From Planctomycetota bacterium (lineage in GTDB: Bacteria; Planctomycetota; PLA2; JAEUHO01): a DNA stretch of 64,000 nucleotides. Below, piece by piece: positions 13,932 to 34,714 of the stretch (position 1 is its first letter; every line of letters begins with the position of its first letter). Under the pieces are notes generated by a model. That model did no database searches. It had not been told where the DNA came from and saw only the letters and a list, made by a program, of their open reading frames with translations. The stretch lies in contig JAJDEN010000026.1 in NCBI GenBank assembly GCA_029259775.1, positions 60,059 to 124,058 on the forward strand. Direction: 5' to 3'. A program made the position numbers and the translations under genes.

Positions 13932-14425
13932 ACCACGCTGAGTCTCTGACAGTGAGCGCGCACGGCGAACGGGAGATCGTAATCATGCGGCGCTTTGACG
14001 CCGCTTGTGCCGACGTGTTCGACGCCATGACGCGCGCTGAACTCTTGAGGAGTTGGTTGACTGGCCCGCCGAGCTGGTCAGTGACCGAGTGCGAGAGTGA
14101 TCTCTGCGTCGGTGGGAGGTACCGGATGGAGTGGCAGGGGGCCGACGATGCTCAGATGGCGATGAGCGGCGCGTACCAAGAAGTCGCGCCGCCGCTGCGA
14201 CTTGTACGCACGCAGACCTTCGAGTTCGGCTGTGAGCCACAGGCGGGCCAGCAACTTGAGACGCTGGTCCTCACGCCGGTCGATGACGGCGCGGCAACGG
14301 AGTTGCGGCTTACCGTGCAGTACCCCAGCAAGGAGGCTCGTGACGGAGCGCTCGCCTCCGGGATGGAGCAGGGAGTGGCTGAGAGCTACGCGGGCCTCGA
14401 CCGCGCACTTGACGAGGCGAAGTGA
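13928..14425 (+). CDS. SRPBCC-superfamily protein (Activator of Hsp90 ATPase homolog 1-like, AHSA1)
   Basis: ATGA overlap with the arsR stop (13928-13931). A 165-aa ArsR+AHSA1 pair is a common two-gene module. High GC3. Confidence 0.75.
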   Translation: MNHAESLTVSAHGEREIVIMRRFDAACADVFDAMTRAELLRSWLTGPPSWSVTECESDLCVGGRYRMEWQGADDAQMAMSGAYQEVAPPLRLVRTQTFEFGCEPQAGQQLETLVLTPVDDGAATELRLTVQYPSKEARDGALASGMEQGVAESYAGLDRALDEAK

Positions 14426-14498
14426 GCGCGAAGCCCACGCAGGCCGGTGGTCCCGTGCCAATCCGCGAGGTGCTCGCTTGGCTTGTGACCGGAGACTC

Positions 14499-17046: not shown

Positions 17047-17146
17047 TCCATGCGCGCAGCCGTTCTCGAGGGGTACAAGCGCCCGCCGTCCCGCGTATTC
17101 TCAGCGCCCGGCGGGGCCACCGCCATCAGGCCTGGGGAGGCCCCAC

Positions 17147-20002
17147 GTGAGCGAGGAGCAGGTCCGGATCGCTTGTCCCGCATGCGGGAAGCGCTTCAGT
17201 CTGAGCCCCGGCTCCGTCCCCGAGGGGGGGCGCGGCAAGAGCAGCCGCTGCAACGGCTGCGGCACGCCCTTCGTCGTCTTGCGCGAGGCCGGTGAGGTCC
17301 GCGCGGAAGCGGCCCCGGCCGCGAGACCTCCGCCCGCCCCCGCCGCGGAGCCCCCCGCGGCGGCGAGCGCGCCCAAGCGCGCACGCCGGAAGCCGCGCGG
17401 CGAGCGCAAGCCCGCGGCCGACCGGTCGCGCCGGCGCCCGCCCTCGGGTCAGAGCAGCGGCCTCAGCACCACCGGCCCGATCGAGGCACCGCTCCCGCCC
17501 AGCGGCGATACGGGCACACCCTTCGGCATCGGGGACCGCGTCGGGCGCTACGAGATCGAAGGCGTGCTCGCGCGCGGCGGTATGGGCAGCCTCTTCAAGG
17601 CCTACGACCCCGCCGGCAATCGCCACGTCGCGCTCAAGGTGCTCGTGAGCACGGCAACCGAGCTCGACAAGCTGCGCTTCCAGCGCGAGATCCAGGTGCA
17701 GGGCAACGTCCAACACCCGCACATCATGCCCATCTTCGACTCCGGCATGATCGGCCAGACGCGCTACTACACAATGGAACTGCTCAAGGACCCCGTCGAC
17801 CTCGTCGAGCTGACCGAGCTCGCACGTTCGGGCGAAGCGACCAAGGACCCCAAGCTGCGGCCCGTCGGCACGCTCGAGGGCCTCGTGCGCGGCGTGATGG
17901 TGCCCGTTTGCCAGGCCATCCACCACGCCAACGTGAACGAAGGCGTGCTGCACCGCGACCTCAAGCCGGGCAACGTCTTGCTCGATCGAGGCGGCCTCCG
18001 GCCCTTCGTGATCGACTTCGGCGTCGCGGGCATGCTCGACAAGAAGAACGCACGGCTTGCGCATCTCGACACGGAGCTGCCCGTCCCGCTGTCCGGCAAG
18101 GGCGTCAGCATCACCGGCACCCTGGTGTTCATGCCGCCCGAGCAGGCGCGCGGGCAGGCCGATCGCCGCGGCGATGTGTGGGCGCTGGGTTCGATCCTGC
18201 ACTACCTCGTGACGGGCGAGCCGCCGCTGCTTGGCGCCATCCGGCCTGTGGTCTCCAAGCAAGAGCGCATCGACGGTCTGAAGATGCTGATCGAGCAGTC
18301 CCACGCGGAGGGCCGCCACTGGGAAGTGCAGGAGTTCAAGGCGAAGCTCGCCGACATCGAATCGGGACGTGAGCGCACGCTCGAGCAGCTGCGGCACGAC
18401 GTGCTGAAGGGGCGCTACCAGGCCCGCCCGCCCGCCATGCCGCGCGCCCTCGACGCGATCATCAGCAAGGCGATGGCGCCCGATCCCACGAAGCGCTATC
18501 GGCATGCCATGGAGCTGCACGACGACCTGCTCGCATGGCTGGAGGGCCGTACGGTCACGGCGATGGTGCGCAGCTCGGGCGCGGCCGTGGGCACCCTCTA
18601 CCGCAGCAAGGTGTTCCTGCGCCGGCAGAAGGCGATGCTGGCGATCCTCGTAGGCCTCGCGCTGATCACCTACGCCGCGGTGACGTACTGGCCGACGGAT
18701 GCGGGGGTGGATCACGCCGCTCTGGCGCAGGCGAGCATGGACGAGGCGCTGGGCCACGAGCAGGCGGATCGCCGCGGCGCCGCGCGCACGGCCGCACGGG
18801 AGGCCTTGCGGCACGACCCCGAGCGCGGTGACGCCTTCGAGCTCATGGCGCGCTTGGATGCCGCCGAGCTCTTCTGGACGAGCGTGCGCCGCGCGCGCGC
18901 GCTCCGAGACAGAGCGAACGCGGCGTTCGACGCGGGTGACGCTTCGACCGGCATCCGCCGTCAAGCGGCCCTCGCCGAGGTGCTTCAGACCCGTATCCTG
19001 CCCACCCTCGATCCCGCGAAGGAGGAACTGCAGGCGGAGATGGCCCAGCTCATGGAGTTCGCCTCCGGCGTGCAGCCCCTGCGCGCGCCTGGCGCACCGA
19101 CGGGGTCGCACTTCACGATCTTCCCGGTCGAGGGCGCCGCGGGCGTGATCCTCTGGGGCCAGGGCATCGTGCTGCCCGCGACCGAGGCCGGCCTCTCCGA
19201 GAAGGCGCGCGTCATGCCGGGTGCTTGGATCCTGCGCGTGCGCCGTGGGCCTGGCGAGGTGTTCGTACCGTTCGCGGCCGCGCCGGGCGGCGCCGGTGTC
19301 ACCGTGACCTGTCCCTACGATCCGGCCAAGCTCGACGCGCGCTCGGTCTACGTGGGCTCCGGTCCAACGCGCGGTCCGGGACGCCCGCAGGCGTCGGGCG
19401 CGCTGCTCTGGGACCGCACCGAAGTCACGATGGCGGAGTACGCGGGCTTCCTCGCCACGCTCACGCCGGAGGAGCAGCGCCGGCGCGTGCCGCGGCGCGC
19501 GGGATCGCTGGGGGCGCTGGGCGAGCCGCTGTGGGATCGCTCGGGCACGAGCTTCCAGCCGCCCTCGGGCGCGCTGCGGCGTCCCGTCGAGGGCGTCTCG
19601 CTCTACGACGCCAAGGCCTATGCCGCCTACGCGAAGAAGCGCCTGCCGAGTGCCGCCGAGTGGGCGTGGGCCGCGAGCGGGCCCGACGGCCGCGTCTCGG
19701 CGATGGGCGGGCTACGCGACCTGCTGGCCGGCGGCGCGCATGTCGACCGCCCGCTGGCCGGCGCGACGGACATCCGCTCCGTCGAGGGCGATCGGAGTCC
19801 CTTTGGCGTCTACGACATGGCCGGAAACGTGGCGGAGTTCACGTCGACGCTGGGGACGCTCCGCGGGGAGAACGGGTGGTTCGTGATGGGCGGCTCCTAC
19901 CTCGGCCCGCCTGCGGATGCGCTCGTGCAGGACGCCCGTCTGGTCGCTGGGTGGATGCCACGGCAGGGCGTCGGCATCCGCTGTGTCCGCGAGGCGCGCT
20001 AG
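17147..20002 (+). CDS. Ser/Thr protein kinase with N-terminal zinc-ribbon and C-terminal FGE-sulfatase (SUMF1/formylglycine-generating-enzyme-like) domain
   Basis: GTG start at 17147 with GGGAGG RBS 6 nt upstream. CPACGKRF...CNGCGTPF zinc ribbon. Hanks kinase motifs: GRYEIEGVLARGGMGSLFKA, ALKVL, HRDLKPGNVLL, DFGVA, PPEQ. Single TM (AILVGLALITYAAV). FGE-domain motifs: LLWDRTEVTMAEYAGFL, LPSAAEWAWAASG, GVYDMAGNVAEFT. Confidence 0.85.
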   Translation: MSEEQVRIACPACGKRFSLSPGSVPEGGRGKSSRCNGCGTPFVVLREAGEVRAEAAPAARPPPAPAAEPPAAASAPKRARRKPRGERKPAADRSRRRPPSGQSSGLSTTGPIEAPLPPSGDTGTPFGIGDRVGRYEIEGVLARGGMGSLFKAYDPAGNRHVALKVLVSTATELDKLRFQREIQVQGNVQHPHIMPIFDSGMIGQTRYYTMELLKDPVDLVELTELARSGEATKDPKLRPVGTLEGLVRGVMVPVCQAIHHANVNEGVLHRDLKPGNVLLDRGGLRPFVIDFGVAGMLDKKNARLAHLDTELPVPLSGKGVSITGTLVFMPPEQARGQADRRGDVWALGSILHYLVTGEPPLLGAIRPVVSKQERIDGLKMLIEQSHAEGRHWEVQEFKAKLADIESGRERTLEQLRHDVLKGRYQARPPAMPRALDAIISKAMAPDPTKRYRHAMELHDDLLAWLEGRTVTAMVRSSGAAVGTLYRSKVFLRRQKAMLAILVGLALITYAAVTYWPTDAGVDHAALAQASMDEALGHEQADRRGAARTAAREALRHDPERGDAFELMARLDAAELFWTSVRRARALRDRANAAFDAGDASTGIRRQAALAEVLQTRILPTLDPAKEELQAEMAQLMEFASGVQPLRAPGAPTGSHFTIFPVEGAAGVILWGQGIVLPATEAGLSEKARVMPGAWILRVRRGPGEVFVPFAAAPGGAGVTVTCPYDPAKLDARSVYVGSGPTRGPGRPQASGALLWDRTEVTMAEYAGFLATLTPEEQRRRVPRRAGSLGALGEPLWDRSGTSFQPPSGALRRPVEGVSLYDAKAYAAYAKKRLPSAAEWAWAASGPDGRVSAMGGLRDLLAGGAHVDRPLAGATDIRSVEGDRSPFGVYDMAGNVAEFTSTLGTLRGENGWFVMGGSYLGPPADALVQDARLVAGWMPRQGVGIRCVREAR

Positions 20003-20408: not shown

Positions 20409-22469
20409 CTAGAGGATGCTGAGCACCTCGTTGATCATGTCGCCCGAAGCGCGGTAGTTGATGTCCCGGCCGATCATCGACAAGGACGGCGTCCAGGCGA
20501 GGTCGCCCACGATGCCCAGACCCGCGCACGCCAGCGCACGCGTCAAGTCCTGCTCACGGACGTTCTTCAGAAGCTTGATGAGTGGAGCCACAGCGCGCTC
20601 GTCACCGACCTTCGCCAACGCCACGACAACCTGGCCCTTCGCGCTCTGGCTGCGGGCACGCAGGAGCTCTTCCTGAAGCACCTTCACCGCCTCGCGGTCG
20701 CTCAGCATGCCGAGCGCCGACGCCGTCGCACGACGCAGCTTCTCCGAGCGACGCTCGCGAAGCGCCTTGCGGATCGCGACGAGGACCCTCTTCTGGTTGT
20801 TGCCGATGTGGCCCAGTCCGATGGCCGCGTAGCCGCGCAGCTCGTCATCCTCGCGCGAGTCGTTCACGATCTCGATCAGATCGCTCATGCTCGTCGAGTC
20901 CCGGGCGAGGCCCAGCGACACCGCGAACGCGGCACGGGAACGAGCCGCGTTCTTCTTGGTCCGCAAGCCGTTGCGCAGCACCTCGCGTGCGCGCGCCTGG
21001 TACTCGCCGTAGAGCCGTACCGTGGTCTCCTCTCCGATCGCGCGGCAGGCTACGCCCAGCGCGAGCGCGCCGTAGGGACGCGAGCCGAACGAACCACTCT
21101 CCGTCACCTTGATGAGCCAGTCACCGATCTTGCTGCCGCCGAGCACGTCCGTTTCCTCCGCCTTCACATCAGCGGCGATCAGGTAGGCGACGCTCATCAC
21201 GGCGAAGTTGCGCGCCGTCAGGTCGCGGATCTTCTTCGAGTCCACACCCTGCTGCAACTCCTTGGCGAGTTCCAGGCGCGTGGCCGAGGTGCAACGCGCA
21301 CCGAGCTTGCCCACGGCGATTGCCGCGGAGCGCAGTACGTTCAGGCTCGTGCGACGCGACGACAGCACGCGGCGGAGCACGTGCAGGTCCACGTCCTTGT
21401 CACCCACACGCCCGAGGGCCTGGGCGGCGTAGCTCGCCACGTAGGCGGGCACCTTCTGCTTGCAGAGGGTCCCCTTGGTGACGCACGTACGCAGGATGCT
21501 GAAGTGCTCGGGCGTGATGGTGTCGCGGTGCTGGAGGCTGACCGCGTTGAGGAGCGCCACCGGGAGGTCCGGGTGCTCGTAGTTGGCCTGCATCAGCTCG
21601 AACAGACGCGCCGTCGTCGCGACCGCGTGGCTCGCCGTGCCGGTGCCCGAGGGCTGATCACCGAGCATGCCGATCGACAGCGCCGCGAAACCGCGCTCGC
21701 GGGCGCGAAGCTTGTCGTTCGAGAACATGTCGAAGAGGACCTCGCGCACCTTGTCGAGGCTCGCGCCGTCGAACTGGTCGTCGGTGACCTCGCGGCGGAG
21801 GAGACCCAGGGCCAGCGCGGCGGACTCACGTGTGATGCCGTCCTTGCTGTTCAAGCCCTTGGTGAGCAGCTCGATGTGCACGGGGTTGTCCGTGATCTTG
21901 GCCAACGCGATGTAGGCGGCGGACTCGGTGTCCTGGTGCTTGGCGTTCGCGGGATTCATCGTCCACAGCAAGGCCGGGATGATGTGCGAGTTGACCGCGG
22001 CGCGGATCGCGTGCCGGCTGGCGTTGCGCGCGCCGGCGTTGGACTTCGAGAGGGTACCGAAGATGTGGTTCGAGCCCTGGAACTTGTAGATGCCGCGCTT
22101 GACCTGCTGCAGCACGTCCTTGTTGTACTCGTACCAGAACATCCAGCTGTCGGCTGTGATGCTGGAGTTGCGCGTCGGGCGCTTCGTGTCCCCGCCCCTG
22201 AAGGGGTCGGTCGCCGGCGCCGGGGGCTGGCCGCCGTCGGGCGTGACCGGTGTCGGGGTCTTGCCGGGCCTGCCATCGGGCGTCGTCGGTGTCGTGGGCT
22301 GACCGGTCGGCGGCGGGGGGCTCGGGGGCGTGGGGTCGAGGGGTTCCTTCAGGCCCGGCGGCAGTGCGCCTCCGGGGCCGCGGTATTGACCGCCATGCGC
22401 GAAGGCCTCGGTCGCTCCGATCGGGAGCGCGAGCGCCGCGAACAGCATCCACATCGTTGTCTTACGCAT
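20409..22469 (-). CDS. Secreted HEAT-repeat protein with Pro/Thr-rich linker (paralog of 22896-24962)
   Basis: Signal peptide MRKTTMWMLFAALALPIGATEAFA. AHGGQYRGPGG, then PTPPSPPPPTGQPTTPTTP linker. Many HEAT-like units (RxxAAxALGxxG...). C-terminal ...INEVLSIL. Confidence 0.75.
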   Translation of the reverse strand: MRKTTMWMLFAALALPIGATEAFAHGGQYRGPGGALPPGLKEPLDPTPPSPPPPTGQPTTPTTPDGRPGKTPTPVTPDGGQPPAPATDPFRGGDTKRPTRNSSITADSWMFWYEYNKDVLQQVKRGIYKFQGSNHIFGTLSKSNAGARNASRHAIRAAVNSHIIPALLWTMNPANAKHQDTESAAYIALAKITDNPVHIELLTKGLNSKDGITRESAALALGLLRREVTDDQFDGASLDKVREVLFDMFSNDKLRARERGFAALSIGMLGDQPSGTGTASHAVATTARLFELMQANYEHPDLPVALLNAVSLQHRDTITPEHFSILRTCVTKGTLCKQKVPAYVASYAAQALGRVGDKDVDLHVLRRVLSSRRTSLNVLRSAAIAVGKLGARCTSATRLELAKELQQGVDSKKIRDLTARNFAVMSVAYLIAADVKAEETDVLGGSKIGDWLIKVTESGSFGSRPYGALALGVACRAIGEETTVRLYGEYQARAREVLRNGLRTKKNAARSRAAFAVSLGLARDSTSMSDLIEIVNDSREDDELRGYAAIGLGHIGNNQKRVLVAIRKALRERRSEKLRRATASALGMLSDREAVKVLQEELLRARSQSAKGQVVVALAKVGDERAVAPLIKLLKNVREQDLTRALACAGLGIVGDLAWTPSLSMIGRDINYRASGDMINEVLSIL

Positions 22470-22786
22470 CGTTCTGTACCTCGTTCATCTCCGGCCGCGG
22501 CGAGCCGGACTGGTGCCTGCCGCGACCGAGTAGAAGCACGTCCGGGGCCCTTCGCGCCGGGCGGGGCGCGCGGGAGACGGAGCGGTCCCCCCGGCGGGTC
22601 ACCTGTCCCCGGAGCGGGACGGGGGAATCGCCCAGGTGGTGTGCGTACGGCACGGAGAGGGGCGTTGGCCGAGCACCAGGGCGCTACGTGCCCGTAGCGC
22701 ATCGGCACGCGTGGAAACGGCCCGTCCACGCTGCGGGGCGCGAGCCGGCAACGCGCGGCGCAGCAGGCAGAGCCCGGAGCCGCGCG

Positions 22787-22855: not shown

Positions 22856-22907
22856 GCGAGATATCTCAGCTAGATATCTCTGCTAGATGTCTCTGCTAGA
22901 TAAGCGA
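22856..22907. repeat. Tandem 13-bp repeat GCTAGATRTCTCT (~3.5 units) overlapping the stop codon of the HEAT paralog
   Basis: gagatatctca gctagatatctct gctagatgtctct gctagataagcga read directly. The TAG stop of the minus-strand gene lies within the last unit. Confidence 0.7.
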
Positions 22908-24962
22908 GAGGACCTCGTTGATCGCGTCGGTCGACGCGCGGTAGTTCACGTCCAAGCTGATGCGCGAGAGCGAGGGCAGCCACTCGAGGTCGCCGATGAC
23001 GCCGAGGCCGGCGCAGGCGAGAGCACGAGTGAGGTCCTGCTCCTTGGTGCTCTTGAGCAGAGCGACGAGGGGATCTACCGCGCGAGCATCGCCAATCTTG
23101 GCGAGCGCGAGGACGACCTGGCCCTTGACGTTCTGGCTCTTGGCACGCTTCAGCTCATCGAGAAGGAGCTTCACACCATCCTTGTCCTGCAAGAGGCCAA
23201 GGGCGGTCGCGGTCTGCTGACGCAACTCCTCCGAGCGACGCTCCTTGAGCGCTTCGCGGATGGGGTTGAGCACGTCACGCGTAGCCTGGCCGATGAGGCC
23301 AAGGGCGAGCGCGGCGTAACCACGGAACTCCGTGTCTTCCTTCTTGTTGCCGATGATCTTGACGAGCGCCTTGACCGAGGACATGTCCTTGATGATGCCC
23401 AGCGATGTCGCGAACGCGGCACGGCCGCGCTTGTCGAGCTTCTTCGAGTGAAGACCGTTGCGCAGCACCTCGAGGGACTTCGAGCGGAACTCGCCGTAGA
23501 CGGGAACCGTAGTCTCGTCTGTGATGGCGGCGCCGACCAGGCCGAGCGCGAGCGCACCGAAGGGGCGCTGGATGTACTTGCCATCCTCAGCCATATCGAG
23601 CAGGAACTCACGCACCTTCGTGCCACCGACGACGTCGGTCTTGCCCTGCTTGACGTCAGCGATGATGAGATCGCTGAGGCTGATGATCGCGAAGTTCTTC
23701 GTGCTCGGGTCCTTGAGCTTGCTCATGGAGTCGAGCAAGGTCTTGGCGACGGCGACACGGTCCTCACCACTGACGAGACGACCGAGCTGACCCAGGCCGA
23801 TGGCGCAGGAGCGACGGACGTTCTTGTCCTTGATACGGCGGTTCGTCAGCGCGCGCTGCATGACCATGAGGTCCTTGGCAGTGCCGATACGACCCAACGT
23901 GAGGGCGGCGTACCCCTGGTGCAGCGACTGGACGTCGAGGCGACCGAAGCGGCCCTTCGTGACACAGTTGCGCAGGAGGTCGCGCTGACCGTCCGTGATC
24001 GACGGGGGCGGCTGCAGGCCGATGGCCATGAGCAGCGAGATCATCAGGTCCGGGTGACCGTACTTCGCCTTGGCAAGCGTGAAGAGGCGCTCGGTCGTGG
24101 CAGCGTGGCCCGAGTAGGAGCCGGAGCCGCTGGGCTGGTCGCCCAGGAGACCGATGGCCATCGCGGCGAACGCTCGCGTACGGGCCTGGTACTTGTCGTC
24201 TGCGTCCTCGAAGATACCGAAGAGGAAGTCACGAACCTTGTCGAGCTCGCCAGCATCGAACTGCTGGCTCGGCTCGGCGCGACGCAGCATGCCGAGACCG
24301 ATCGCAGCCGACTCCTGCACGATGAGGTCGTGCTTGAGCTTCGGGTCGAGACCCTTCTGGATCAGCTCGATCTGAGCGGGGTCCTTCGCCATCTTGGCGA
24401 GCGCGATGTACGAAGCGGACTCGGTATCCTGGTGCTTCGAGTTCTTCGGGTCCATGGCCCACAGGAGGGCGGGGACGACCGTGGTCTCGACCTTCGCGCG
24501 AATGTCGTGCGTCGCGTCGGAGCGGTTCGAGCGGTTCTTGCCGCCGATCTGGAATAGCGGGTTCTCCGAGGAGACGCGCGTGTAAAGCGCCTTCTTCAGG
24601 TTCTCGATGTCCGCCTTGTTGCTGTGGTACCAGAACACCCAGTTCTCGAAGCCGAGGGAGCCGCGGGCGCCCTTCGTCTTCTCACCCATGCCGGGCGTCG
24701 TGGGCGACGGAGCCGGCGTGGTCGGCATCGGCGTCGACGGCGTCGGTGCACTCGGGGGACCGTCCGGCGTCGTCGGAGGCGGCGTCACCGGAGGGCCCGA
24801 GGGGGGCGGGGGGCTGGGGGGCGTGGGATCGGTGGGCTCGCGCTGGCCGGGCGGAACTGCGCCGCCGGGGCCGCGGTACTGACCACCATGCGCCCACAGG
24901 TCGCCGGCGAAGATCATCAGCGCCACGGAAACCGCCAGGGTCCCGAATACGATTCGCTTCAT
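22896..24962 (-). CDS. Secreted HEAT-repeat protein with Pro/Thr/Ser-rich linker (tandem paralog of 20409-22469)
   Basis: MKRIVFGTLAVSVALMIFAGDLWA signal. Same AHGGQYRGPGG box and PTPPSPPPPSGPP linker. Roughly 45-50% identical (by eye) to its neighbour across the full length. C-terminal ...INEVLSLI. Confidence 0.75.
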   Translation of the reverse strand: MKRIVFGTLAVSVALMIFAGDLWAHGGQYRGPGGAVPPGQREPTDPTPPSPPPPSGPPVTPPPTTPDGPPSAPTPSTPMPTTPAPSPTTPGMGEKTKGARGSLGFENWVFWYHSNKADIENLKKALYTRVSSENPLFQIGGKNRSNRSDATHDIRAKVETTVVPALLWAMDPKNSKHQDTESASYIALAKMAKDPAQIELIQKGLDPKLKHDLIVQESAAIGLGMLRRAEPSQQFDAGELDKVRDFLFGIFEDADDKYQARTRAFAAMAIGLLGDQPSGSGSYSGHAATTERLFTLAKAKYGHPDLMISLLMAIGLQPPPSITDGQRDLLRNCVTKGRFGRLDVQSLHQGYAALTLGRIGTAKDLMVMQRALTNRRIKDKNVRRSCAIGLGQLGRLVSGEDRVAVAKTLLDSMSKLKDPSTKNFAIISLSDLIIADVKQGKTDVVGGTKVREFLLDMAEDGKYIQRPFGALALGLVGAAITDETTVPVYGEFRSKSLEVLRNGLHSKKLDKRGRAAFATSLGIIKDMSSVKALVKIIGNKKEDTEFRGYAALALGLIGQATRDVLNPIREALKERRSEELRQQTATALGLLQDKDGVKLLLDELKRAKSQNVKGQVVLALAKIGDARAVDPLVALLKSTKEQDLTRALACAGLGVIGDLEWLPSLSRISLDVNYRASTDAINEVLSLI

Positions 24963-25233
24963 CGTTCTGACTCCTCAGTGATCGCCCCGAAACAGCCTGC
25001 CGGGTCGCGTCTGCGGTCAGACGTCGCGTCTGAGGCCAGACGCAAATGGCAGGGAGCTGCGGGGCGGAACTTGTCCGTCCGAGATTCAAGCACACCGGGT
25101 GCCTCAGGGATACGGTTCCGGCACAATCTCGGACCTGGGTCCGGCCATGCGCCGAACACCATGTCTCTCCATAGGTTACGCCGATATGGGGGCGCCGCGG
25201 GCACAGCCGGGCCCGAGCCCTGGGGGCGGGCGA

Positions 25234-25255
25234 AACGCTACCCCTGGGTAGCGTT
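25234..25255. promoter_or_regulatory. 10-bp inverted repeat AACGCTACCC-ct-GGGTAGCGTT upstream of the LOG-domain gene (candidate operator)
   Basis: Read directly, ~95 bp upstream of ATG 25351 in the divergent intergenic region. Also nearby: tandem hairpins GCGTCTG-cggt-CAGACGT / CGCGTCTG-aggc-CAGACGC at ~25002-25040. Confidence 0.3.
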
Positions 25256-25350
25256 CGGCGGGACCCGTGACAAAACGCTTCGGCGCCGCCTCGGCAGGGG
25301 CGGGCGGCCGGCGGGCCCGGTACCTTCACCAGCCCCCTCCGGAGAGCCCC

Positions 25351-27336
25351 ATGCACATCGCCCCGCAGACCCCCGACGGCCGCATCACGGCCGTGCGCCC
25401 CGCCCCCGGGGGAGCGCTGGGGATCGACATCGCCTTCCCCGTCGATCCGGCCTTCCGGGCCCTGGTCACCGGTCGCGAGGCCGAGGTGATCTTCGCGGCT
25501 CGCAGCCGGATCGCCCGCCTGGGGATCGATGTGACACCCTCGGGGCCCATGACCTGGGACGGCGACCGGCTGTGCCTCGCCGCCACGGTGACGTGCAACG
25601 TCCCCGCCTACGGCGTCGAGCCCTTCCTCGAGCGCGTCCTGCTGCCGGGGATCCGCATCGGCCGCCTCGTCTTCTGCCCGGCCGAGCGCCGGCTGGGCTC
25701 GGACGAGATCGACGAGGCCGTGCGGGACAACCTGCTGCAGTTGCCCGCGGCGTACTCGATCGACTACGAAGGCCGCTTCCGCATCCGGCCTGAAGGCTGG
25801 GTCTACGACCTGTCGGAGCCGATGTCGCTGGCGTCGCTCACCACGATCCTCACGCGCGCGGACGGGAAGGACCTGCTGAACCGCATCCAGACACGCCGTG
25901 CGGTCGACCGCATCGTGCTCGAGCCCGGCAAGGGCGTGATCACGTCCTGTTCGATGTTCTTGCACAAGCACTACGTCGTGCTCGAGAGCGAAGACACCTC
26001 GCTTGGCCATCATCTGGAAGCCGTGTGCATGGACCCGATCAGCACGCGCGGCACGAACATCTTCCTCGAGTTCGCCAACCGCAGCGACCGCCGCATCGTG
26101 AACCCGACTGTTGCCGCGGCGCTCTACCACGCGGTGCCGGAGGACCTGGAGCCGCGACGATGGTACGGCTCGGTCGACCTCCAGCCCGCCGCTCCGGATC
26201 CCGTGTCCGAGGCGACCGCCGAGTACGAGCGGCTCGCGCCGGTGTTCGATCGCCTCGAGGTCGCGAGCGAGGACGAGCACTACGCCCACCGCATGATCGC
26301 CGTCGTCACCGACCTGCCGGCCCTTCTCGATGGAGGTGCCCCCGACCTGCTCTGGCGTCGACCGAGCGACGGCTGCGAGCCGACCGAAGGGGAGGACCTC
26401 TCCGCGGAGCAGATCCGCCATCGCGTGATCACCAACGCAGTCGACGCCTCGTACGGCACGTGCGTGCTCAACGACGTGCCTGCCGGAGCGGGCATCACCC
26501 TGCTGCTTGGCTACTTCCCGAACCTGATCGAGCACACCCAGATTTGCCAAGCTGCGCTCGAGCGCAAGATCGCGCGCATCATCTTCCGCCGTGCCTCGTT
26601 CGAGCACGGGAGCTTCTTCTCCGCGCGCGATCACGGTCGGCTCGCCGACTACGAGACCCTTGGCATGGAAGTGTTCTGGTGCCATGACGAGCGGCGGCAC
26701 GTGGTGAGGCACGTCTTTCGCGGCCTGCGCGGCTACTTCATGGAGCCGCACACGGTCGATCGCTTCAAGTCGGCACTCATCTTCGCGGCGTACGGCTCGG
26801 CGCGTCCCCTCGGCGACGACGAGGTCGCCAAGGTCTCGCGCTTGCTCGAGAACCTCCAGGCGTTCTTCGGCAGCGACATCGCGATCATGACGGGCGGTGG
26901 TCCCGGCGCGATGCAGCAGGCCACGGACATCGCGCAGGGCATGGGCATGCTGGTTGGCGCGAGCTTCATCGAGACCGTCGACCAACAGACCAACCAGACC
27001 GCCGAGTTCTATCAGACCTTCCAAGGCCGCAGCCGTCAGGCGCGCCAGCGCTGGTTCGAGGTGGCCGCCTTCCACTGGTTCTTCATGGGCGGTGTCGGCA
27101 CGCTCGAGGAGGTCGGCCTCACGCTGACCGACATGAAGCTGGGCGTCATCGAGCGCTCGCCGCTCGTGTTCTTCGGTCGCCACGACGGCCAGACGTACTG
27201 GGACAGCCTCCAGCGCCAATTCGCGACGATGGTCGAGGTTGGCCGCGCCCCGGCCTGGCTCACGGAAAACGTCCTCGTCACCGACGATCCCGATGAGGTG
27301 CCTCGGTTCTACAAGCGCATCCTCGAGCTCGGTTGA
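25351..27336 (+). CDS. Large (661 aa) protein with C-terminal LOG-family (TIGR00730/lysine-decarboxylase-like, PpnN/SLOG-type Rossmann) domain; N-terminal ~440 aa uncharacterised
   Basis: C-terminal motifs IAIMTGGGPGAMQQATDIAQGMG (GGGxGxM) and FMGGVGTLEEVGLTLTD (PGGxGTxEE) match LOG-family signatures. GGAGAG RBS before ATG 25351. The longer antisense ORF 24682-27351 has no motifs. Confidence 0.75.
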   Translation: MHIAPQTPDGRITAVRPAPGGALGIDIAFPVDPAFRALVTGREAEVIFAARSRIARLGIDVTPSGPMTWDGDRLCLAATVTCNVPAYGVEPFLERVLLPGIRIGRLVFCPAERRLGSDEIDEAVRDNLLQLPAAYSIDYEGRFRIRPEGWVYDLSEPMSLASLTTILTRADGKDLLNRIQTRRAVDRIVLEPGKGVITSCSMFLHKHYVVLESEDTSLGHHLEAVCMDPISTRGTNIFLEFANRSDRRIVNPTVAAALYHAVPEDLEPRRWYGSVDLQPAAPDPVSEATAEYERLAPVFDRLEVASEDEHYAHRMIAVVTDLPALLDGGAPDLLWRRPSDGCEPTEGEDLSAEQIRHRVITNAVDASYGTCVLNDVPAGAGITLLLGYFPNLIEHTQICQAALERKIARIIFRRASFEHGSFFSARDHGRLADYETLGMEVFWCHDERRHVVRHVFRGLRGYFMEPHTVDRFKSALIFAAYGSARPLGDDEVAKVSRLLENLQAFFGSDIAIMTGGGPGAMQQATDIAQGMGMLVGASFIETVDQQTNQTAEFYQTFQGRSRQARQRWFEVAAFHWFFMGGVGTLEEVGLTLTDMKLGVIERSPLVFFGRHDGQTYWDSLQRQFATMVEVGRAPAWLTENVLVTDDPDEVPRFYKRILELG

Positions 27337-27535
27337 GGCCGACGATGCCATCGCGAATCCGGGCCCCGGCTCGGCGTCGCGTCCTCAACGTGCAGGAAGC
27401 ACGCCTGCGGCGCGACGCCTCGCCGTGACGCCGGCTCGCTTCGGCCTCCTCGGCCTCAACAGCCAACCGACGATGCCATCGCAGTGCGGCCGACGATGCC
27501 ATCGCGATTCCGGGCCCCGGCTCGCTTCGGCCTCC
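27333..27535. repeat. Tandem direct repeats (CGACGATGCCATCGCG x3; GATTCCGGGCCCCGGCTCGCTTCGGCCTC x2) upstream of the NHL lipoprotein gene
   Basis: ggccgacgatgccatcgcgaatccgggccccggctcg at 27333-27369 is repeated as ggccgacgatgccatcgcgattccgggccccggctcgcttcggcctc at 27488-27534. A third cgacgatgccatcgc lies at 27467-27481. Confidence 0.55.
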
Positions 27536-27652
27536 CGGAATGGTGGAGCCAGGAGAGGCTCGGATGCAGGGCTGGCCGAGTTGGACGACTCGGGCGTTGG
27601 CGTCGATATGGGCTTCGGGCTACCGTCTTGCATGCGGTGGTGGAGGCCCTGG

Positions 27653-28879
27653 ATGCGAGCGAGAACGTGGACGGCTGCTGCCCTGCTGTGCGTCTTCGCC
27701 TGCGGTGCGTGCCTCGCGGCCTGCGGCGGAGCAGGCGGGGGCCCGCCGTCGGTCGACACCTCGTTCGTGGACCTCTCGACGTTCAGCCCGGCCGCGCTCG
27801 TCCTCGGGCAGCCCATCTTCGCGCTGGGCGACGCCAACCAGGGTCAGCTCGTCCCCGGCCCCAGCACGATGGCGCGGCCCGGCATGCCGGCCGTCGGGCC
27901 GTTCTACCTGCCCGACATCAGCAACCACCGCGTGCTCGGCTACAACCAGCCGCCGGTCTTCAGCAACATCGCCGCCAACTTCGCCCTGGGCCAGCCGGGT
28001 CTCGCCTTCAACATCCAGGGGGTGGGGCCGACGGCGCTCAGACGCCCGACGTGCGCCGCCGTCTCCGGCGGCCGCCTCTTCGTCAGCGACAGCGGCAACC
28101 ACCGCGTGCTCATCTGGCGCACGCTCCCGGACCGCAACGCCGCACCGGCCGACATCGCGCTCGGCCAGCCCGACCTCGTGACGGCAGGGGTCGGTGCGGG
28201 CGCGGCCGACATGCAGGAGCCGGCCGGTCTGTGCGTTGCCGGGGACAAGCTGCTCGTGTGCGATCGCCTCAACCACCGCGTGCTGATCTGGACGACCGCA
28301 CCCAGCGCCAGCGGCGCGCCGGCCGATCTCGTGCTCGGGCAGGCGGACTTCGACGTCAACCTGCGCAATGCGGGTGGGCGCGCCGGCGCCTCGACCTTGG
28401 CCGATCCGACGTCGGTATGGACCGACGGCGCGCGCGTCCTCGTGGCCGACCGCGGCAACCACCGCGTGCTCGTGTGGACGAGCTTCCCGACGCAGAGCGG
28501 GCAGCCGGCGGATCTGGTGCTGGGCCAGCAGTCCTTCGACCGCGCAGCACCCGGGGTGGGGCCGACGCGCTTGTTCTTGCCGAGCGACGTCACGTCCAAC
28601 GGCCGGCAGGTCTTCGTGGCCGATGCCGGCAACCACCGCGTGCTGGCATGGCACGAGTTCCCCGAAGTGGATGGGGCGCCTGCGCGCGCCGTCCTGGGGC
28701 AGGCGACCTTCGAGCACAGCGTCCCCAACGACGAAGACCAGGACGGCACACCGGACGCCGGGCCGGGGCCACGCACGTTCCGGAGCGTGGACGCGATGCT
28801 CACCGTGAGGGTGTTCGAGAACCTGCTCTACGTCGGTGATACCGGCAACCACCGCCTGCTCGTCTTCCGCGGAGAGTAG
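27653..28879 (+). CDS. NHL-repeat (six-bladed beta-propeller) lipoprotein
   Basis: MRARTWTAAALLCVFACGACLAACGG lipobox (alternative ATG 27632). Six repeats of (S/D)xGNHRVLxW...LGQ. The 546-aa ORF-track version has an unlikely N-terminal extension across the tandem repeats. Confidence 0.75.
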   Translation: MRARTWTAAALLCVFACGACLAACGGAGGGPPSVDTSFVDLSTFSPAALVLGQPIFALGDANQGQLVPGPSTMARPGMPAVGPFYLPDISNHRVLGYNQPPVFSNIAANFALGQPGLAFNIQGVGPTALRRPTCAAVSGGRLFVSDSGNHRVLIWRTLPDRNAAPADIALGQPDLVTAGVGAGAADMQEPAGLCVAGDKLLVCDRLNHRVLIWTTAPSASGAPADLVLGQADFDVNLRNAGGRAGASTLADPTSVWTDGARVLVADRGNHRVLVWTSFPTQSGQPADLVLGQQSFDRAAPGVGPTRLFLPSDVTSNGRQVFVADAGNHRVLAWHEFPEVDGAPARAVLGQATFEHSVPNDEDQDGTPDAGPGPRTFRSVDAMLTVRVFENLLYVGDTGNHRLLVFRGE

Positions 28880-30235: not shown

Positions 30236-30632
30236 GGGCGCCTCCTTCGTAGATCAAGAGGCAGGGCGCCGCGCGGCTCGCACCGAGCGCGAGCACGTAG
30301 CGGCCCGAGGCCTTGCCATGCAACTGAAACTCGCCGAACGCATCCGTCTCGGCACGGGCGACGCACGTGAGGCCGCCTGTCTCGTAGAGCGCGAGCGGAA
30401 GCTGTGCGATCGCCTCCTGGATGCGTTCCGCGCCCGTTACCTGGCCGACGATCTCGATCCGTCCCTCACCCAGCATGCGGATGAGGACATCGATCTCGTA
30501 GGGCCCGACGCCGGCGATGAGCTGCAGATCGGGGATCGATCCGGAGCGCAGGTCCGTGCGCCGGGGCGCCGGCCGCGGCCGTGTTGGGTGGTCGAGGTGC
30601 AAGGGCCGCGTGGTGATGGCGAGGTGGTTCAT
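30207..30632 (-). CDS. Small (141 aa) CarbopepD_reg-like/transthyretin-like beta-sandwich protein
   Basis: ATG 30632 overlaps the S8 peptidase stop (ATGA). ...CVARAETDAFGEFQLHGKASGRYVLAL... motif. No signal peptide. Confidence 0.6.
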   Translation of the reverse strand: MNHLAITTRPLHLDHPTRPRPAPRRTDLRSGSIPDLQLIAGVGPYEIDVLIRMLGEGRIEIVGQVTGAERIQEAIAQLPLALYETGGLTCVARAETDAFGEFQLHGKASGRYVLALGASRAAPCLLIYEGGAHVASSQARV

Positions 30633-31771
30633 CGCGTCACCGCCTTCCACAGGTTGAGGGAGCCATGCCAGAGGTAGCGTCCGTCCGCGCCGCGCACAGG
30701 GTCCGCAGCATGGCGCAGGCGCCACATCAGCTCGGTGGAGGACTTGTCCGGGTGCAGCGAGCGCAGCAGCGCCGCCGCCCCGCTGACGAGACCGGCGGAG
30801 AACGAAGTGCCGCTCCAGTAGCCGCTGCTGTGGTCCCAGCCGAGGCCGAGCGGGCCATAGAGATCGACGCCAGGCGCGTAGATCACGATGCGCGACGGGT
30901 CCTTCGAGGCATTGGAGAACTCGGCGACGCGGTTGTGGCGATCCACCGAGCCGACCGTGATCGTGTCGTTCCAGTCACCCAACTGGGAGACTTCCTCCAC
31001 CCCGTCGTTGCCGGCCGAGTTCACGATGACGACGCCGGAAGCGCGCATGTCCGCGATGAGGCGCGCGATCCTCTGCTTGCGGCCGGTCGTGGGCATGGCG
31101 GAGACGTTCACGATCTGGGCGCCCATGGCCCACGCGAAGCGCAGCCCGTACTCCAGTTCCTTGTCCGTGCCCCAGCCCTCGTCGTCCCGCACGCGGATCG
31201 GAAGGATCGTCGCGTCGGGCGCGGCCAAGAGGACCATGCCCGCAACGAACGTGCCGTGGCCGACACCGCTGTCCGTGATCCCGTCCCGGTCGTCGTCGTA
31301 GCCGTCACCGAGGTCATGCGGGTCGAAGTCCAGGTCCACCGCGTCGAAGCCCCACGGCAAGACCCGGCCCGCGATCTCGGGGTGATCCAGGTTGAAGCCG
31401 CCGTCGAGCACCGCCACGAGGACGCCGCCGCCGCGCGTCAGGCGGTGGGCGTCGCGGCTGCGTAGCTGCTCTTGGGTCGTGTGCACGCTGAACAGCAGGT
31501 CGCCGTCGAGGATCGGGGTCGTCGTCGGGTCGCTGTCCGAGCGATGCTCGAGCAAGCGCGCCGGCAGCGTGCCCGGATGCGTCGATCCGGGCTTGGCGTA
31601 ACGCGCTTCGTAGGCACGGCGGAGGCGGTCGAACTGCTGGAGCTTGCGCACCCAGCCGGGTGTGGCATCACCCTCAGCGGAGACAGTAGGCGCCGTACCA
31701 AGGAAGAACAGCAGGGCCGCGAGCAGCGCGGCGACCCAGCGCCCAGGCTGGTGGCGTGTGGCAATCATCAT
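30629..31771 (-). CDS. Secreted S8-family (subtilisin-like) serine peptidase
   Basis: Signal peptide MMIATRHQPGRWVAALLAALLFFLGTAPTVSA. Catalytic Asp (VAVLDGG), His (GVGHGTFVAG) and Ser (GTSFSAG) in canonical order, with N oxyanion (NSAGN). Start 3 nt after the CHAT gene stop. Confidence 0.85.
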   Translation of the reverse strand: MMIATRHQPGRWVAALLAALLFFLGTAPTVSAEGDATPGWVRKLQQFDRLRRAYEARYAKPGSTHPGTLPARLLEHRSDSDPTTTPILDGDLLFSVHTTQEQLRSRDAHRLTRGGGVLVAVLDGGFNLDHPEIAGRVLPWGFDAVDLDFDPHDLGDGYDDDRDGITDSGVGHGTFVAGMVLLAAPDATILPIRVRDDEGWGTDKELEYGLRFAWAMGAQIVNVSAMPTTGRKQRIARLIADMRASGVVIVNSAGNDGVEEVSQLGDWNDTITVGSVDRHNRVAEFSNASKDPSRIVIYAPGVDLYGPLGLGWDHSSGYWSGTSFSAGLVSGAAALLRSLHPDKSSTELMWRLRHAADPVRGADGRYLWHGSLNLWKAVTR

Positions 31772-31774
31772 CGG

Positions 31775-34714
31775 TCAATTTCCTTCGAGGGTCGTGGGGA
31801 GCACGGACTTCGCCGTGGCCTGGTGGGATGCCGCGCCTGTGCTGGCGTGCAAGGAACGCGCGGCGGTGCGGGGAGTCGTGGCGCCCATCAGGAAGAAGGG
31901 CGCCCAGTAGTACGGGTGCGGGTAGTCGGCGCGGACGACGGCCATCGCGTCGCGTTGGGCGGCGGCCGCGTCCCGGCCATCGCGCAGCGCCTCGTAGAAG
32001 GCCTGCATGAACGTCGCCGCGGCGCCGTCGTGCACGCGCCACTGGCTGCAGAGCAGGGCGGGCGCGCCCGCGGAGAGGAAGCCGCGTGCGAGGCCCTGGA
32101 TTTCGTTGCCGGCATTCCAACCGGCCACACCGCTCTCGCAGGAGGAGACGACGACCAGCTCGCCCGTCACGCAGAGGGAGCCCAGGTCGTAGGGCGTCAC
32201 CCAGCCGTCGCCCAGCCGGATCGCGGAGAGTCGCGGGTTCGAGCGCCGGAACATGCCGTGGGTGGCGATGTGCAGGATGCGCGCTCGGCCTGCTGCCTCG
32301 CGCAGCTTCGCGAAGCTCGCGTCGGCGCCGAGCTTGAGGTCGCGCGTGCCGAGGAGGGCGGCGACGGCGCGCGACTCGCTCTCGACCTGCGGTACGCCCT
32401 CGTCCGGCACGCCGAAGACCGCCGCGTCCCCCGTGGCCTGCGGCACCCGGCTCTTGCAGTGGTGGTAGACCGCTGCGCTCGGCGTATAGAGCACCTCGAA
32501 GCGATCGCAGAGCCAGCCGTCGCCCCACGGCAGGGCGTGGAAGGGAAGACCATGCAGCGGGCCGTGGGGCGAAATCACCAGGCGCTTGCCGCGCAGCGTG
32601 TCCGCGATCGGGTCCAGCACCATCTCGGCCAGGCGAGACAGGTTGTCGCGCGTTGCGCGTAGCACCAGGTCTTCTGCTACGACCGAGGGGCGCTCGTGCT
32701 TGGCGAGATGGAATCGGAAGCGTCCGAGCCGCTCCTCGATCTCCCCCGCCCCGACGGCGATGCACTGGGCGCGAACTTCCTCGCGCGTCACGACGAAGGC
32801 CACGAGGCCCGTCTTGGTGACCAGGTAGTCGATCAGTACCGTGTCCGCCGCGAGGTGCCGGCGCAGCGTCCGGGGTGACGGTACCGCGACCGCGCCCGCC
32901 GTCGTGCCGCCCCGGCCTTGGGCACGCAGCAGGGACTGCAACTCGCCCTCGAGTTCACCCGCGCGCGTGTTCACGGTCGCGGCGGTCTCGACGGCGTCCT
33001 GCTCCGCGCCGCCGCCGCTACGGAGCAGTTTCCAGTACAGCGCGTTCAGCGCTTCGCGCACCACGCGGATCCGGGTCGCGTGCAGACCGTCCGTCGGCGC
33101 TTCGACGCTCTCGCCGGCAAGCATGTCGAGCAGCGCGCGTGACTTGGCGCGCTCGGTGTAGGCGAACGCCTGCTCGACGTCGCCCGCATCGCACAGCAGC
33201 TGCACGAGCGCCTCGTACATCTCGGCGCGCGCACCAAGGAAGGCGGTCATGTACTCGTCCGGCGGGACGCCTGCGCGCTGACGCTCCAGCACGTCGATCG
33301 CGATCTGGTAGGAGGCGATGGCCAGCTTGGCGTTGCCGCCGGATGCGTAGGCACGGGCCTCGACGCGCCGGGCTTCGATCACCATCCAGGGTGCGTGCAC
33401 CCGTCGGCAGCGCACCAGCACCATGCGGGCGTGGCTCAGGGCGTCCGTGTACTGCTTGGCGGCCAGGGCGAGGTTCGCCCGGAGAAGGCTGACCGTGGCG
33501 TTCTCGAGTGGGTTCGTGCTGCCCTCGACCAACGCACGCGCCTCGAGGGTGAACCGCCGCGCAGCGGAGCGCAGGCCCAGGCGCTGCGCCGTGTAGGCCT
33601 GCTGCACGGCGCACCCGACTTCGCGCGCCGCGAGACCCAGGCCGGCGAAGAGCTCGCGCGCCAGCGCGTACCCGGATGCGGCGGCCTGCAGCTCACCCGT
33701 CATGGCGGCGGCGCGGGCCGCGAAGTAGGCGGCTTGCGCACGGTCCTTGTCGAGACCCAGCTCCTCGAAGGCGGCCGAGGCGCGCTCGGCGAAGCCGCGG
33801 GCGTCCTCGGGCAGGTTGAGGAAGAGATGCACCTCCGCCCGGTCGAGGTCGATGTGGGCCAGACGCATGCCGTCGCCCAGCTCCGTCAAGCGCTCTTCGA
33901 TGGCAGCGTAGCGGTCCAGCGCCTCGTCGTAACGACCGCGCAGGACCGCGGAGTAGGCGAGGTTGTAGTCCATGCTCGCCGTCGTGTGGTCGCAGCCCTC
34001 CGCCTCGAACATGTCGCGTGCGATCTGGAACCAGCGCGCGGCCGCCCGGAAGCGGTTGCACGCCTGGAGCGCGGCGGCACGGTTGGCCGCGACGGTTGCC
34101 CGCAGGCGCACGGGGCTGTCGTGGGGGAGCAGCCACTCGACCTGACGGAACTGGCGCAGGGCGTCGCGCGGCTTGTCGAGCTGCTTCGCCAGGTTGGCCA
34201 AGGCGAGCCGGATGCGGATGACGCCGCGAACATCGTTTCGTTCCTCGAACGTGCGCAGGACCTGCCGGCCGACCTCCTCGGCCTCGGCGAAGCGCTCGAG
34301 CTGGGTGAGCGCCTGCACACGGAGCGCGCGAAGCTCGGCGCGCTCCTGGGCACCGCCGGCGGGACGCAGCAGGGCGAGAGCGTCGTCGATCGCGCGGAGC
34401 GACTCGGGGAAGCGACCGATGAGAAGCGCTGCCTGGGAAAGCGTGCGGAGGGCGCGTCCCTCCATCGCGACGTCTTCGAGGCGGCGGGCGACGTGCAGGG
34501 CGAGCCGTGCGCGCTGGCGTGCCTCCGCGGGGTCCGTGCGCATGCAGGCGGTCGCTGCGCCGAGCAGGCCTTCACCCAACGACGCCGAGAAGAACGGCCG
34601 CCCTGCCCTCAGATCCCGGGCGCGCGACGCGTACGTCGGCCGCTCGAGCACGGACGTGAGCAGCTGCTCTGCCTGCAAGGAACCCCACCGCACCGCGACG
34701 CGAGAGCGGCCCAA
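31775..34714 (-). CDS. TPR-repeat protein with C-terminal CHAT (caspase-like) peptidase domain
   Basis: N-terminal ~650 aa are Ala/Leu-rich TPR-like repeats. The C-terminal domain carries the CHAT catalytic dyad context: ARILHIATHGMF (His) and GELVVVSSCESG (Cys), plus FLSAGAPALLCSQW. The true start may be downstream of 34714. Confidence 0.8.
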   Translation of the reverse strand: MGRSRVAVRWGSLQAEQLLTSVLERPTYASRARDLRAGRPFFSASLGEGLLGAATACMRTDPAEARQRARLALHVARRLEDVAMEGRALRTLSQAALLIGRFPESLRAIDDALALLRPAGGAQERAELRALRVQALTQLERFAEAEEVGRQVLRTFEERNDVRGVIRIRLALANLAKQLDKPRDALRQFRQVEWLLPHDSPVRLRATVAANRAAALQACNRFRAAARWFQIARDMFEAEGCDHTTASMDYNLAYSAVLRGRYDEALDRYAAIEERLTELGDGMRLAHIDLDRAEVHLFLNLPEDARGFAERASAAFEELGLDKDRAQAAYFAARAAAMTGELQAAASGYALARELFAGLGLAAREVGCAVQQAYTAQRLGLRSAARRFTLEARALVEGSTNPLENATVSLLRANLALAAKQYTDALSHARMVLVRCRRVHAPWMVIEARRVEARAYASGGNAKLAIASYQIAIDVLERQRAGVPPDEYMTAFLGARAEMYEALVQLLCDAGDVEQAFAYTERAKSRALLDMLAGESVEAPTDGLHATRIRVVREALNALYWKLLRSGGGAEQDAVETAATVNTRAGELEGELQSLLRAQGRGGTTAGAVAVPSPRTLRRHLAADTVLIDYLVTKTGLVAFVVTREEVRAQCIAVGAGEIEERLGRFRFHLAKHERPSVVAEDLVLRATRDNLSRLAEMVLDPIADTLRGKRLVISPHGPLHGLPFHALPWGDGWLCDRFEVLYTPSAAVYHHCKSRVPQATGDAAVFGVPDEGVPQVESESRAVAALLGTRDLKLGADASFAKLREAAGRARILHIATHGMFRRSNPRLSAIRLGDGWVTPYDLGSLCVTGELVVVSSCESGVAGWNAGNEIQGLARGFLSAGAPALLCSQWRVHDGAAATFMQAFYEALRDGRDAAAAQRDAMAVVRADYPHPYYWAPFFLMGATTPRTAARSLHASTGAASHQATAKSVLPTTLEGN

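Follow-up and report, generated by a model that had tools for sequence, protein, structure and literature searches.

A LOG-family protein of Planctomycetota and Chromatiaceae with a predicted Dcd-like and deaminase-fold front end

Type-II LOGs, such as CgLOGII (Cg1261; PDB 5wq3), T. thermophilus TT1465 (1wek) and Neisseria YgdH (9us2), are single-domain hexamers of 200-260 amino acids (aa). In PpnN (E. coli YgdH), a (p)ppGpp-regulated pyrimidine/purine nucleotide 5'-monophosphate nucleosidase, the LOG core instead sits within a larger multidomain protein, where it is flanked by DUF4478 (PAG1) and DUF3412 (PAG2), and these added domains bind regulatory nucleotides. Annotation of the family routinely goes by the C-terminal domain alone, yielding the names 'LOG family protein', 'AMP nucleosidase' or 'lysine decarboxylase-like'. 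Here we describe a 661-aa protein encoded in a 64,000-nucleotide stretch of a Planctomycetota genome (assembly GCA_029259775.1, contig JAJDEN010000026.1, positions 60,059 to 124,058 of the forward strand), to which we refer as the window. By sequence and structural modelling it appears to be a LOG enzyme with a previously unrecognised front end made up of Dcd-like barrels and a deaminase fold, the chemistry of which is hypothetical. Although sequence libraries detect nothing in 70% of the protein, this part is predicted to contain two further nucleotide-enzyme folds.

The gene and the signal preceding it are located as follows (window coordinates throughout).

25351..27336, plus strand: gene for the three-domain protein, with its stop codon at 27334-27336
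25341..25346, plus strand: GGAGAG resembling a Shine-Dalgarno site, separated from the ATG by 4 nt, as seen in the sequence itself

Translation of 25351-27336 (+) yields the 661 residues and a stop. The gene is further backed by more than 200 full-length homologues, and its strand by a G+C content at third codon positions (GC3) of 0.90, in a window with 69% G+C overall. A preliminary description of this DNA had reported the open reading frame (ORF), two LOG signatures and a perfect palindrome upstream, all of which we recovered; the signatures TGGGPGAMQQATDIAQGMG and FMGGVGTLEEVG correspond to residues 513-531 and 578-589. The comparisons support the ATG at 25351 as the start, because all homologues in the alignment begin at the equivalent of M(Y/H)xxPxTxDG and because GGAGAG lies 4 nt upstream. 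A longer ORF beginning with GTG at 25267 was rejected, since the homologue N-termini disagree with it, as was an 889-aa antisense ORF (24682-27351, minus strand) spanning the whole LOG-fusion gene, a high-GC artefact without backing from codon-position G+C or homologues.

The homologues, which are 650-665 aa long, can be aligned end to end. Relatives are encoded in 110 of 185,579 species genomes, comprising Planctomycetota metagenome-assembled genomes, many Chromatiaceae and a few Verrucomicrobiota. The Chromatiaceae carriers include cultured type strains of Thiocystis, Allochromatium, Thiocapsa, Marichromatium, Thermochromatium and others. When residues 1-475 alone were searched against 1.84 billion representative proteins, just 96 clusters were returned, all of the same architecture or fragments thereof. 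The N-terminal region therefore does not circulate separately at detectable similarity, and every complete family member found has the full architecture. Across 138 full-length members, the set over which all residue counts below are given, the N-terminal 475 residues are conserved as well as the LOG domain and include invariant polar residues. Our literature search, the coverage of which did not extend to the SLOG survey of Burroughs et al. 2015, where the architecture may be mentioned, turned up no paper describing a Dcd-like/deaminase-like/LOG arrangement.

The C-terminal part of the protein is the one that sequence comparison places most directly.

26776..27333, plus strand: LOG domain, residues 476-661, closest to type-II LOGs
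26890..26907, plus strand: TGGGPG nucleotide-binding glycine loop, residues 514-519
27043..27045, plus strand: R565, counterpart by alignment of the LOG catalytic Arg (CgLOGII R155, PaLOG R92, PpnN R241)
27085..27111, plus strand: MGGVGTLEE, residues 579-587, equivalent to PGGxGTxxE with the first Pro replaced; the predicted catalytic Glu is E587

Type-II LOGs provided the best matches to residues 476-661 in both sequence and structure, with 9us2, 5zi9, 5wq3 and 1wek covering residues 479-653. The domain has the Rossmann-like fold of LOG proteins, and in the AlphaFold2 model its core is preceded by a helix at residues 466-474. It shares with the type-II enzymes the GGGxG loop, the GGxGTxxE motif and the catalytic Arg and Glu, residue roles being taken from PMC5379747 and bioRxiv 10.1101/2025.04.13.648610. 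T514, G515 and G516 of the loop are each invariant (138/138); R565 (137/138) aligned to the Arg of the (E/V)RK motif in 9us2 and 5zi9; and within GGxGTxxE, G580, G581 and G583 are found in 138/138 members and T584 and E587 in 137/138. The domain departs from type-II LOGs in three respects. The first motif position is V, M, I or L and not Pro. The catalytic Glu is preceded by Glu586 (137/138), as in type I LOGs and PpnN, in place of the Asp (CgLOGII D177) that is a type-II feature (PMC5379747). Finally, Asp544 (129/138) aligns at the position of the ribose-hydroxyl-binding Glu (PaLOG E74, PpnN E223), with Gln545 next to it and Glu541 three residues before it (135/138 each). Judged by its sequence, the segment is thus a LOG domain most like those of type II and keeps catalytic Arg565 and Glu587, which bears out what the preliminary description had proposed for the C-terminus.

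It could be argued from the intact catalytic residues, and from the names 'LOG family protein', 'AMP nucleosidase' and 'Rossmann-fold nucleotide-binding protein' under which family members are deposited in databases, the first two in particular, that nothing more than a conventional cytokinin-activating LOG or PpnN-type nucleosidase is encoded here, its N-terminal extension being uninformative. We consider this highly improbable. The sole Pfam match was PF03641 at residues 570-651 (E 4e-9; 37.1 bits, above the cutoff of 27), and the TIGR00730 score of 38.7 bits fell far below the cutoff of 96.35. Whereas type-II LOGs consist of a single domain, there are about 475 additional N-terminal residues here, as conserved as the LOG domain and with invariant polar positions of their own, and the domain analysis set out below contradicts the idea of an uninformative extension. 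As for PpnN, it likewise embeds a LOG core with the same catalytic Arg and Glu in a larger multidomain protein, but neither DUF4478 nor DUF3412 was found when looked for with Pfam at E<=1 and E<=10, and PpnN structures overlapped the protein model over a core of about 200 residues only (TM-score on target 0.33-0.34). Moreover, unlike in PpnN, the two domains added here both precede the LOG core, and their folds derive from enzymes. The earlier suggestion that this is something other than an ordinary ppnN is upheld by these comparisons, and neither of the outcomes named there as counter-evidence, a DUF4478 architecture or loss of the catalytic Arg and Glu, was observed.

No motif had been recognised in the N-terminal two-thirds when the stretch was first described. 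Consistent with this, Pfam gave no match to residues 1-270 or 294-480 even at E<=10, and scans of the N-terminal and middle regions with Pfam, NCBIfam and PADLOC found nothing. Structure and profile-profile comparison, by which alone they are seen, instead point to duplicated Dcd/dUTPase-like barrels followed by a zinc-less cytidine-deaminase fold. The barrels and the linker that follows them are laid out in this way.

25351..25725, plus strand: Dcd-like barrel repeat 1, residues 1-125, with RSxxxRLG (R51, S52, R56, G58) and PGxxxGRLVF (G104, R105); hhalign E 1e-5
25492..25524, plus strand: FAARSRIARLG, residues 48-58, equivalent to Dcd G-R110-S111-S-L-A-R115-L-G117 (dUTPase motif II)
25726..26145, plus strand: Dcd-like barrel repeat 2, residues 126-265, with H221, D228-P229, E240 and N243; RSS loop deleted
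26011..26079, plus strand: HHLEAVCMDPISTRGTNIFLEFAN, residues 221-243, equivalent to Dcd H121...D128-P-G...L-E138-F-x-N141 (dUTPase motif III region)
26146..26196, plus strand: linker, residues 266-282, variable and of low confidence (predicted local distance difference test, pLDDT, <50 at 273-281; alignment gaps)

In the AlphaFold2 model, built on 37 homologues, residues 1-265 (pLDDT about 85-92) adopt the jelly-roll beta-barrel fold of the dCTP deaminase/dUTPase superfamily. For this region, Foldseek independently found M. tuberculosis and E. coli Dcd. The fold is the one seen in homotrimeric Dcd (E. coli 1xs1) and in the bifunctional Dcd-dUTPases (M. tuberculosis 2qlp/2qxx, M. jannaschii 1ogh). 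When profiles were compared by hhalign, with an E. coli Dcd reference sequence identical to 1xs1, residues 49-110 aligned to positions 108-162 of E. coli and M. tuberculosis Dcd (E 1e-5), pairing ARSRIARLG with GRSSLARLG and PGIRIGRLVF with PGMLIGALSF. In the second repeat a weak alignment paired H221 with H121, D228-P229 with D128-P129, E240 with E138 and N243 with N141. Counterparts of Dcd R110, S111, R115, H121, D128, E138 and N141 would therefore all be present on this alignment, and they are invariant or nearly so: R51, S52, G58, G104, H221 and E240 were found in 138/138 members and R56 and D228 in 137/138. The barrels would thereby retain all the positions that structures and mutagenesis of E. 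coli Dcd have picked out, and for two of these the PDB contains Dcd mutants (E138A, E138D and H121A). Since the residues are divided between two fused repeats, the arrangement implies one site per chain, as against three per trimer in Dcd. As modelled, residues 1-265 are thus two fused Dcd-like barrels of the dUTPase superfamily, which would keep complementary halves of the catalytic motif set. A direct hhalign comparison of repeat 1 with repeat 2 was not significant, and an internal duplication is therefore supported by structure and motif logic and not by sequence.

A similar division of motifs is seen in long-form DCD (PF06559-type; A. tumefaciens 2r9q and its S. meliloti orthologue), where, as read from the S. 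meliloti protein, KSSTGRL lies in barrel 1 and H..FDPGFG..VLEV in barrel 2. These proteins of about 365 aa differ in that they stand alone, with a C-terminal lid and unfused to deaminase-fold or LOG domains, and they have no significant sequence similarity to the protein described here. To our knowledge, the activity of 2r9q-type long DCDs is known only from annotation. In evolutionary logic the barrels can also be likened to the monomeric dUTPases of herpesviruses (EBV 2bsy), which arose by duplication of a trimer subunit and complementary loss of motifs, leaving a single site between the barrels (PMC12524310). The order of the motifs is opposite, however, motif III being located in the first domain of the herpesvirus enzymes and in the second domain here, and the herpesvirus proteins are viral, eukaryote-associated dUTPases, while the barrels here are Dcd-like.

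In place of the RSS loop deleted from repeat 2, family members carry a strongly conserved T-S-C-S-M-F-L-H-x-H segment (residues 198-207; 25942-25971), with C200 in 135/138 and H207 in 137/138, and this segment may, together with H221, bind a metal or ligand at a site for which Dcd offers no equivalent. Matches of the N-domain profile to designed 'Pizza' NHL-like repeats among PDB sequences were discarded as spurious, being short and summed over chance repeats.

The barrels are connected by the linker to a second fold.

26197..26775, plus strand: cytidine-deaminase-like fold without the zinc motifs HxE/PCxxC, residues 283-475, with a disordered insert at about residues 342-366

Residues ~283-475 have the helix-sheet-helix organisation and the 2-1-3-4(-5) strand order of the deaminase fold. 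Catalytic deaminases are defined by zinc-binding (H/C)xE and PCxxC motifs (PMC3239186). When these were looked for in residues ~283-475, in helix 2 and helix 3 respectively, both were absent and there was no Cys pair. The helices at these positions start with NLIEHTQIC and SARDHGRL, whose polar residues are no longer present in P0146, P0192 and P0206, distant members of the family. We therefore treat this part of the protein as a zinc-less scaffold or ligand-binding module. Other members of the fold that are metal-free or inactive, namely FdhD, ADAT3/Tad3 and TM1506, have no detectable sequence relationship to it and occur in other domain contexts.

Taken together, these comparisons describe a cytoplasmic protein of three domains: Dcd-like barrels, a zinc-less deaminase fold, and a LOG domain with its catalytic Arg and Glu intact. 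For its activity we tentatively propose, as a reading that falls somewhat short of being probable, that a cytosine nucleoside triphosphate is processed at a composite Dcd-like site, after which the LOG domain removes the base. The two barrels would behave like adjacent subunits of a Dcd/dUTPase trimer with one active site between them; R51, S52, R56 and R105 of repeat 1 would line its phosphate side, and H221, D228 and E240 of repeat 2 the side facing base and sugar. This site would deaminate the cytosine nucleoside triphosphate, possibly with release of pyrophosphate as in bifunctional Dcd-dUTPases, and the monophosphate so formed would be split by the LOG domain into uracil and a sugar 5-phosphate. 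The zinc-less deaminase fold might serve as a scaffold or as a nucleotide-binding regulatory module, and the role of the whole may be that of a chromosomal gene for housekeeping of the nucleotide pool or for catabolism, not defence.

Several observations weigh against this proposal. The alignment of repeat 2, at residues ~186-250, with Dcd 79-147 is weak (hhalign E 2e-3 to 4e-3, probability 9-14%). No counterpart of the C-terminal lid residues of Dcd that bind the Mg-triphosphate (Y171, K178, Q182) was found in the alignment, repeat 2 being followed by a semi-conserved R-x-W-(Y/H)-G only. At the position of Dcd W131 there is a variable Ser/Thr, and sugar specificity is thus not indicated. The N-domain went unseen by Pfam (residues 1-270, E<=10) and by profile searches of PDB sequences, which returned no Dcd, and its comparison with the profile of S. 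meliloti long-form DCD, the 2r9q orthologue, was not significant (E 0.02-0.7); we therefore claim no membership of that family at the sequence level. In the LOG domain, it is Asp544 that aligns with the ribose-binding Glu. LOG enzymes are known for acting on ribonucleotide monophosphates, mostly purine, and to assign dUMP or UMP as the substrate is guesswork. Because the aromatic W131 is not conserved and LOG enzymes prefer ribonucleotides, we speculate that a ribo substrate, CTP, is at least as plausible as dCTP.

The failure to find the lid residues, and that of any sequence profile to recognise the N-domain, would also fit a different arrangement, which we regard as possible while clearly falling short of likely, in which the LOG domain is the sole catalytic centre and the barrels and deaminase-like fold are pseudo-enzyme sensors of a (deoxy)nucleoside triphosphate that switch the nucleosidase on or off. 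The zinc site has clearly been lost from the middle domain, so that one added domain, if not both, is non-catalytic in the classical sense. There are parallels for such control in the action of dTTP on Dcd and of (p)ppGpp on PpnN through its flanking domains, PpnN being a case of a LOG core regulated by added nucleotide-binding domains (bioRxiv 10.1101/2025.04.13.648610). What speaks against sensing alone is the state of the residues in the barrels. E240 corresponds to the general base of Dcd, which is required for the chemical step and not for binding, and is conserved in 138/138 members, as are H221, S52 and R51. Pseudo-enzymes usually lose such catalytic residues. The invariance of the E138 counterpart thus argues for chemistry, on sequence grounds, without proving it. 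A composite, catalytic Dcd-like site could be taken one step further, to a single polypeptide that would carry out a complete pathway from cytosine nucleoside triphosphate to free uracil and sugar 5-phosphate, by means of a 'monomerised' Dcd-type site and a LOG domain gated by the zinc-less module; this extension we think rather doubtful.

The proteins encoded around the gene bear on a further suggestion, made when the stretch was first described, that it is part of a defence system.

22896..24962, minus strand: divergent HEAT-repeat gene (PF13646), a possible co-regulated neighbour

In the window, the LOG-fusion gene is flanked by HEAT-repeat paralogues at 20409-22469 (-) and 22896-24962 (-) and by an ORF for an NHL-repeat protein at 27239-28879 (+). 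The neighbours had previously been listed as tandem HEAT paralogues and an NHL lipoprotein gene; both gene types stand, but a brief look at the N-terminus of the NHL-repeat protein (AALLC) shows no typical lipobox. The divergent HEAT gene was found upstream in 16 of 43 Planctomycetota loci and in 0 Chromatiaceae loci. Although the stretch had been called accessory-looking, a block consisting of a Ser/Thr kinase-FGE fusion, a response regulator-HATPase fusion, HEAT, the LOG-fusion gene and BipA recurs in Planctomycetota relatives down to 61% identity, with the kinase-FGE/response-regulator pair remaining syntenic with the LOG-fusion gene over the same range. In Chromatiaceae, the gene has a fixed position between yebC-ruvC-ruvA and zapD-yacG. 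When flanking ORFs were clustered in 89 loci of the family, no gene family next to it was common across phyla.

Might the protein nevertheless be an anti-phage effector that depletes nucleotides, or belong, as a SLOG-type component, to a conflict system that works through nucleotide signals? Deaminases and nucleosidases that deplete nucleotides are known from defence (bioRxiv 10.1101/2023.01.24.525353), and a CHAT-TPR/subtilase module lies about 3 kb downstream. Against this, the 661-aa protein matched 0 families of PADLOC-DB 2.0, its composition is native, no partner sensor or signal-generating gene is adjacent, and its fixed Chromatiaceae position is among genes for cell division and recombination. 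Because there is no cross-phylum neighbour and no PADLOC match, and because the Chromatiaceae context is one of housekeeping genes, we consider a defence role very unlikely, and the suggestion is not sustained. By the pattern of its contexts, this is a vertically inherited chromosomal gene, not a member of a defence island.

A number of other features were noted in these neighbourhoods. At 16048-20002 in the window, and in loci L007 and L008, the response regulator is fused to HATPase_c_2 (RsbW-like) and adjoins a 951-aa protein with zinc ribbon, Ser/Thr kinase and FGE-sulfatase domains. The tandem HEAT paralogues are 685-687 aa long, and at the start of a homologue in locus L011 there is a segment resembling a signal peptide and a long linker rich in Pro and Thr; weak matches of the second paralogue to PADLOC HEAT-ARM models (E 1.6e-6) probably reflect repeat similarity only. 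Further along the window, at 30629-34714 (-), a gene for a 978-aa CHAT (caspase-like) TPR protein adjoins a subtilase S8 gene, and in locus L006 (5151-10404) a CHAT gene is followed by three S8 peptidase genes; the CHAT-TPR/S8 pair may be a protease-based module. In Thermochromatium tepidum (L004), a DDE transposase (13234-14478) and an IS605 OrfB/Cas12f-like TnpB (17985-19220) lie a few kb downstream of the homologue, in a neighbourhood that is otherwise housekeeping.

Two related palindromes accompany the HEAT and LOG-fusion genes.

25234..25255, no strand: perfect palindrome AACGCTACCC-CT-GGGTAGCGTT, with the core GCTACC-N4-GGTAGC 99-114 bp upstream of the ATG
22683..22698, no strand: second palindrome, GCTACG-TGCC-CGTAGC, between the HEAT paralogues and about 215 bp upstream of the first one (20409-22469)

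The palindrome at 25234-25255, which had earlier been put forward as a candidate operator, lies in the promoter region common to the LOG-fusion gene and the divergent HEAT gene. It is exact, occurs nowhere else in the window and did not turn up in any of 100 shuffles, and it is both real and conserved: the core is present 88-168 bp upstream of the start in 14 loci of Planctomycetota relatives, equal to 10 distinct contigs after merging duplicates. It is kept at 61-62% protein identity, where the remaining intergenic sequence barely aligns, with the central 4 nt variable. The second palindrome has the same half-site with a symmetric C/G swap, giving 2 matches to GCTAC-N6-GTAGC in the window against 0.01 expected, and an equivalent second copy is found in L007 (3477-3492), L011 and L012. 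In the Planctomycetota loci L015-L018 (60-61% identity), the divergent HEAT gene is kept and an exact GCTAC-N6-GTAGC upstream is absent. Promoter and terminator scans were uninformative, and no known RNA family was recognised by Rfam in the region upstream; no riboswitch therefore explains the palindrome. The simplest reading is that of a putative symmetric site for a dimeric regulator common to the HEAT genes and the LOG-fusion gene, and the existence of two copies suggests that one regulator may act on all three, with a role as a hairpin also possible. Expression in this Planctomycetota clade is probably controlled through GCTACC-N4-GGTAGC.

If both ends of the protein were catalytic, it would offer a compact and testable case of substrate channelling in pyrimidine-nucleotide breakdown, and a bacterial parallel to the 'monomeric dUTPase' of herpesviruses; were the complete pathway to hold, pyrimidine nucleotides would be turned over by a route not recognised before and specific to Chromatiaceae and the Planctomycetota-Verrucomicrobiota group. 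If, on the other hand, the front half is a sensor, it would represent a new nucleotide control of a nucleosidase, alongside that of PpnN by (p)ppGpp. Since cultured Chromatiaceae strains carry the gene, genetics is feasible, and either outcome would tell what this gene, conserved in purple sulfur bacteria and many Planctomycetota, does.

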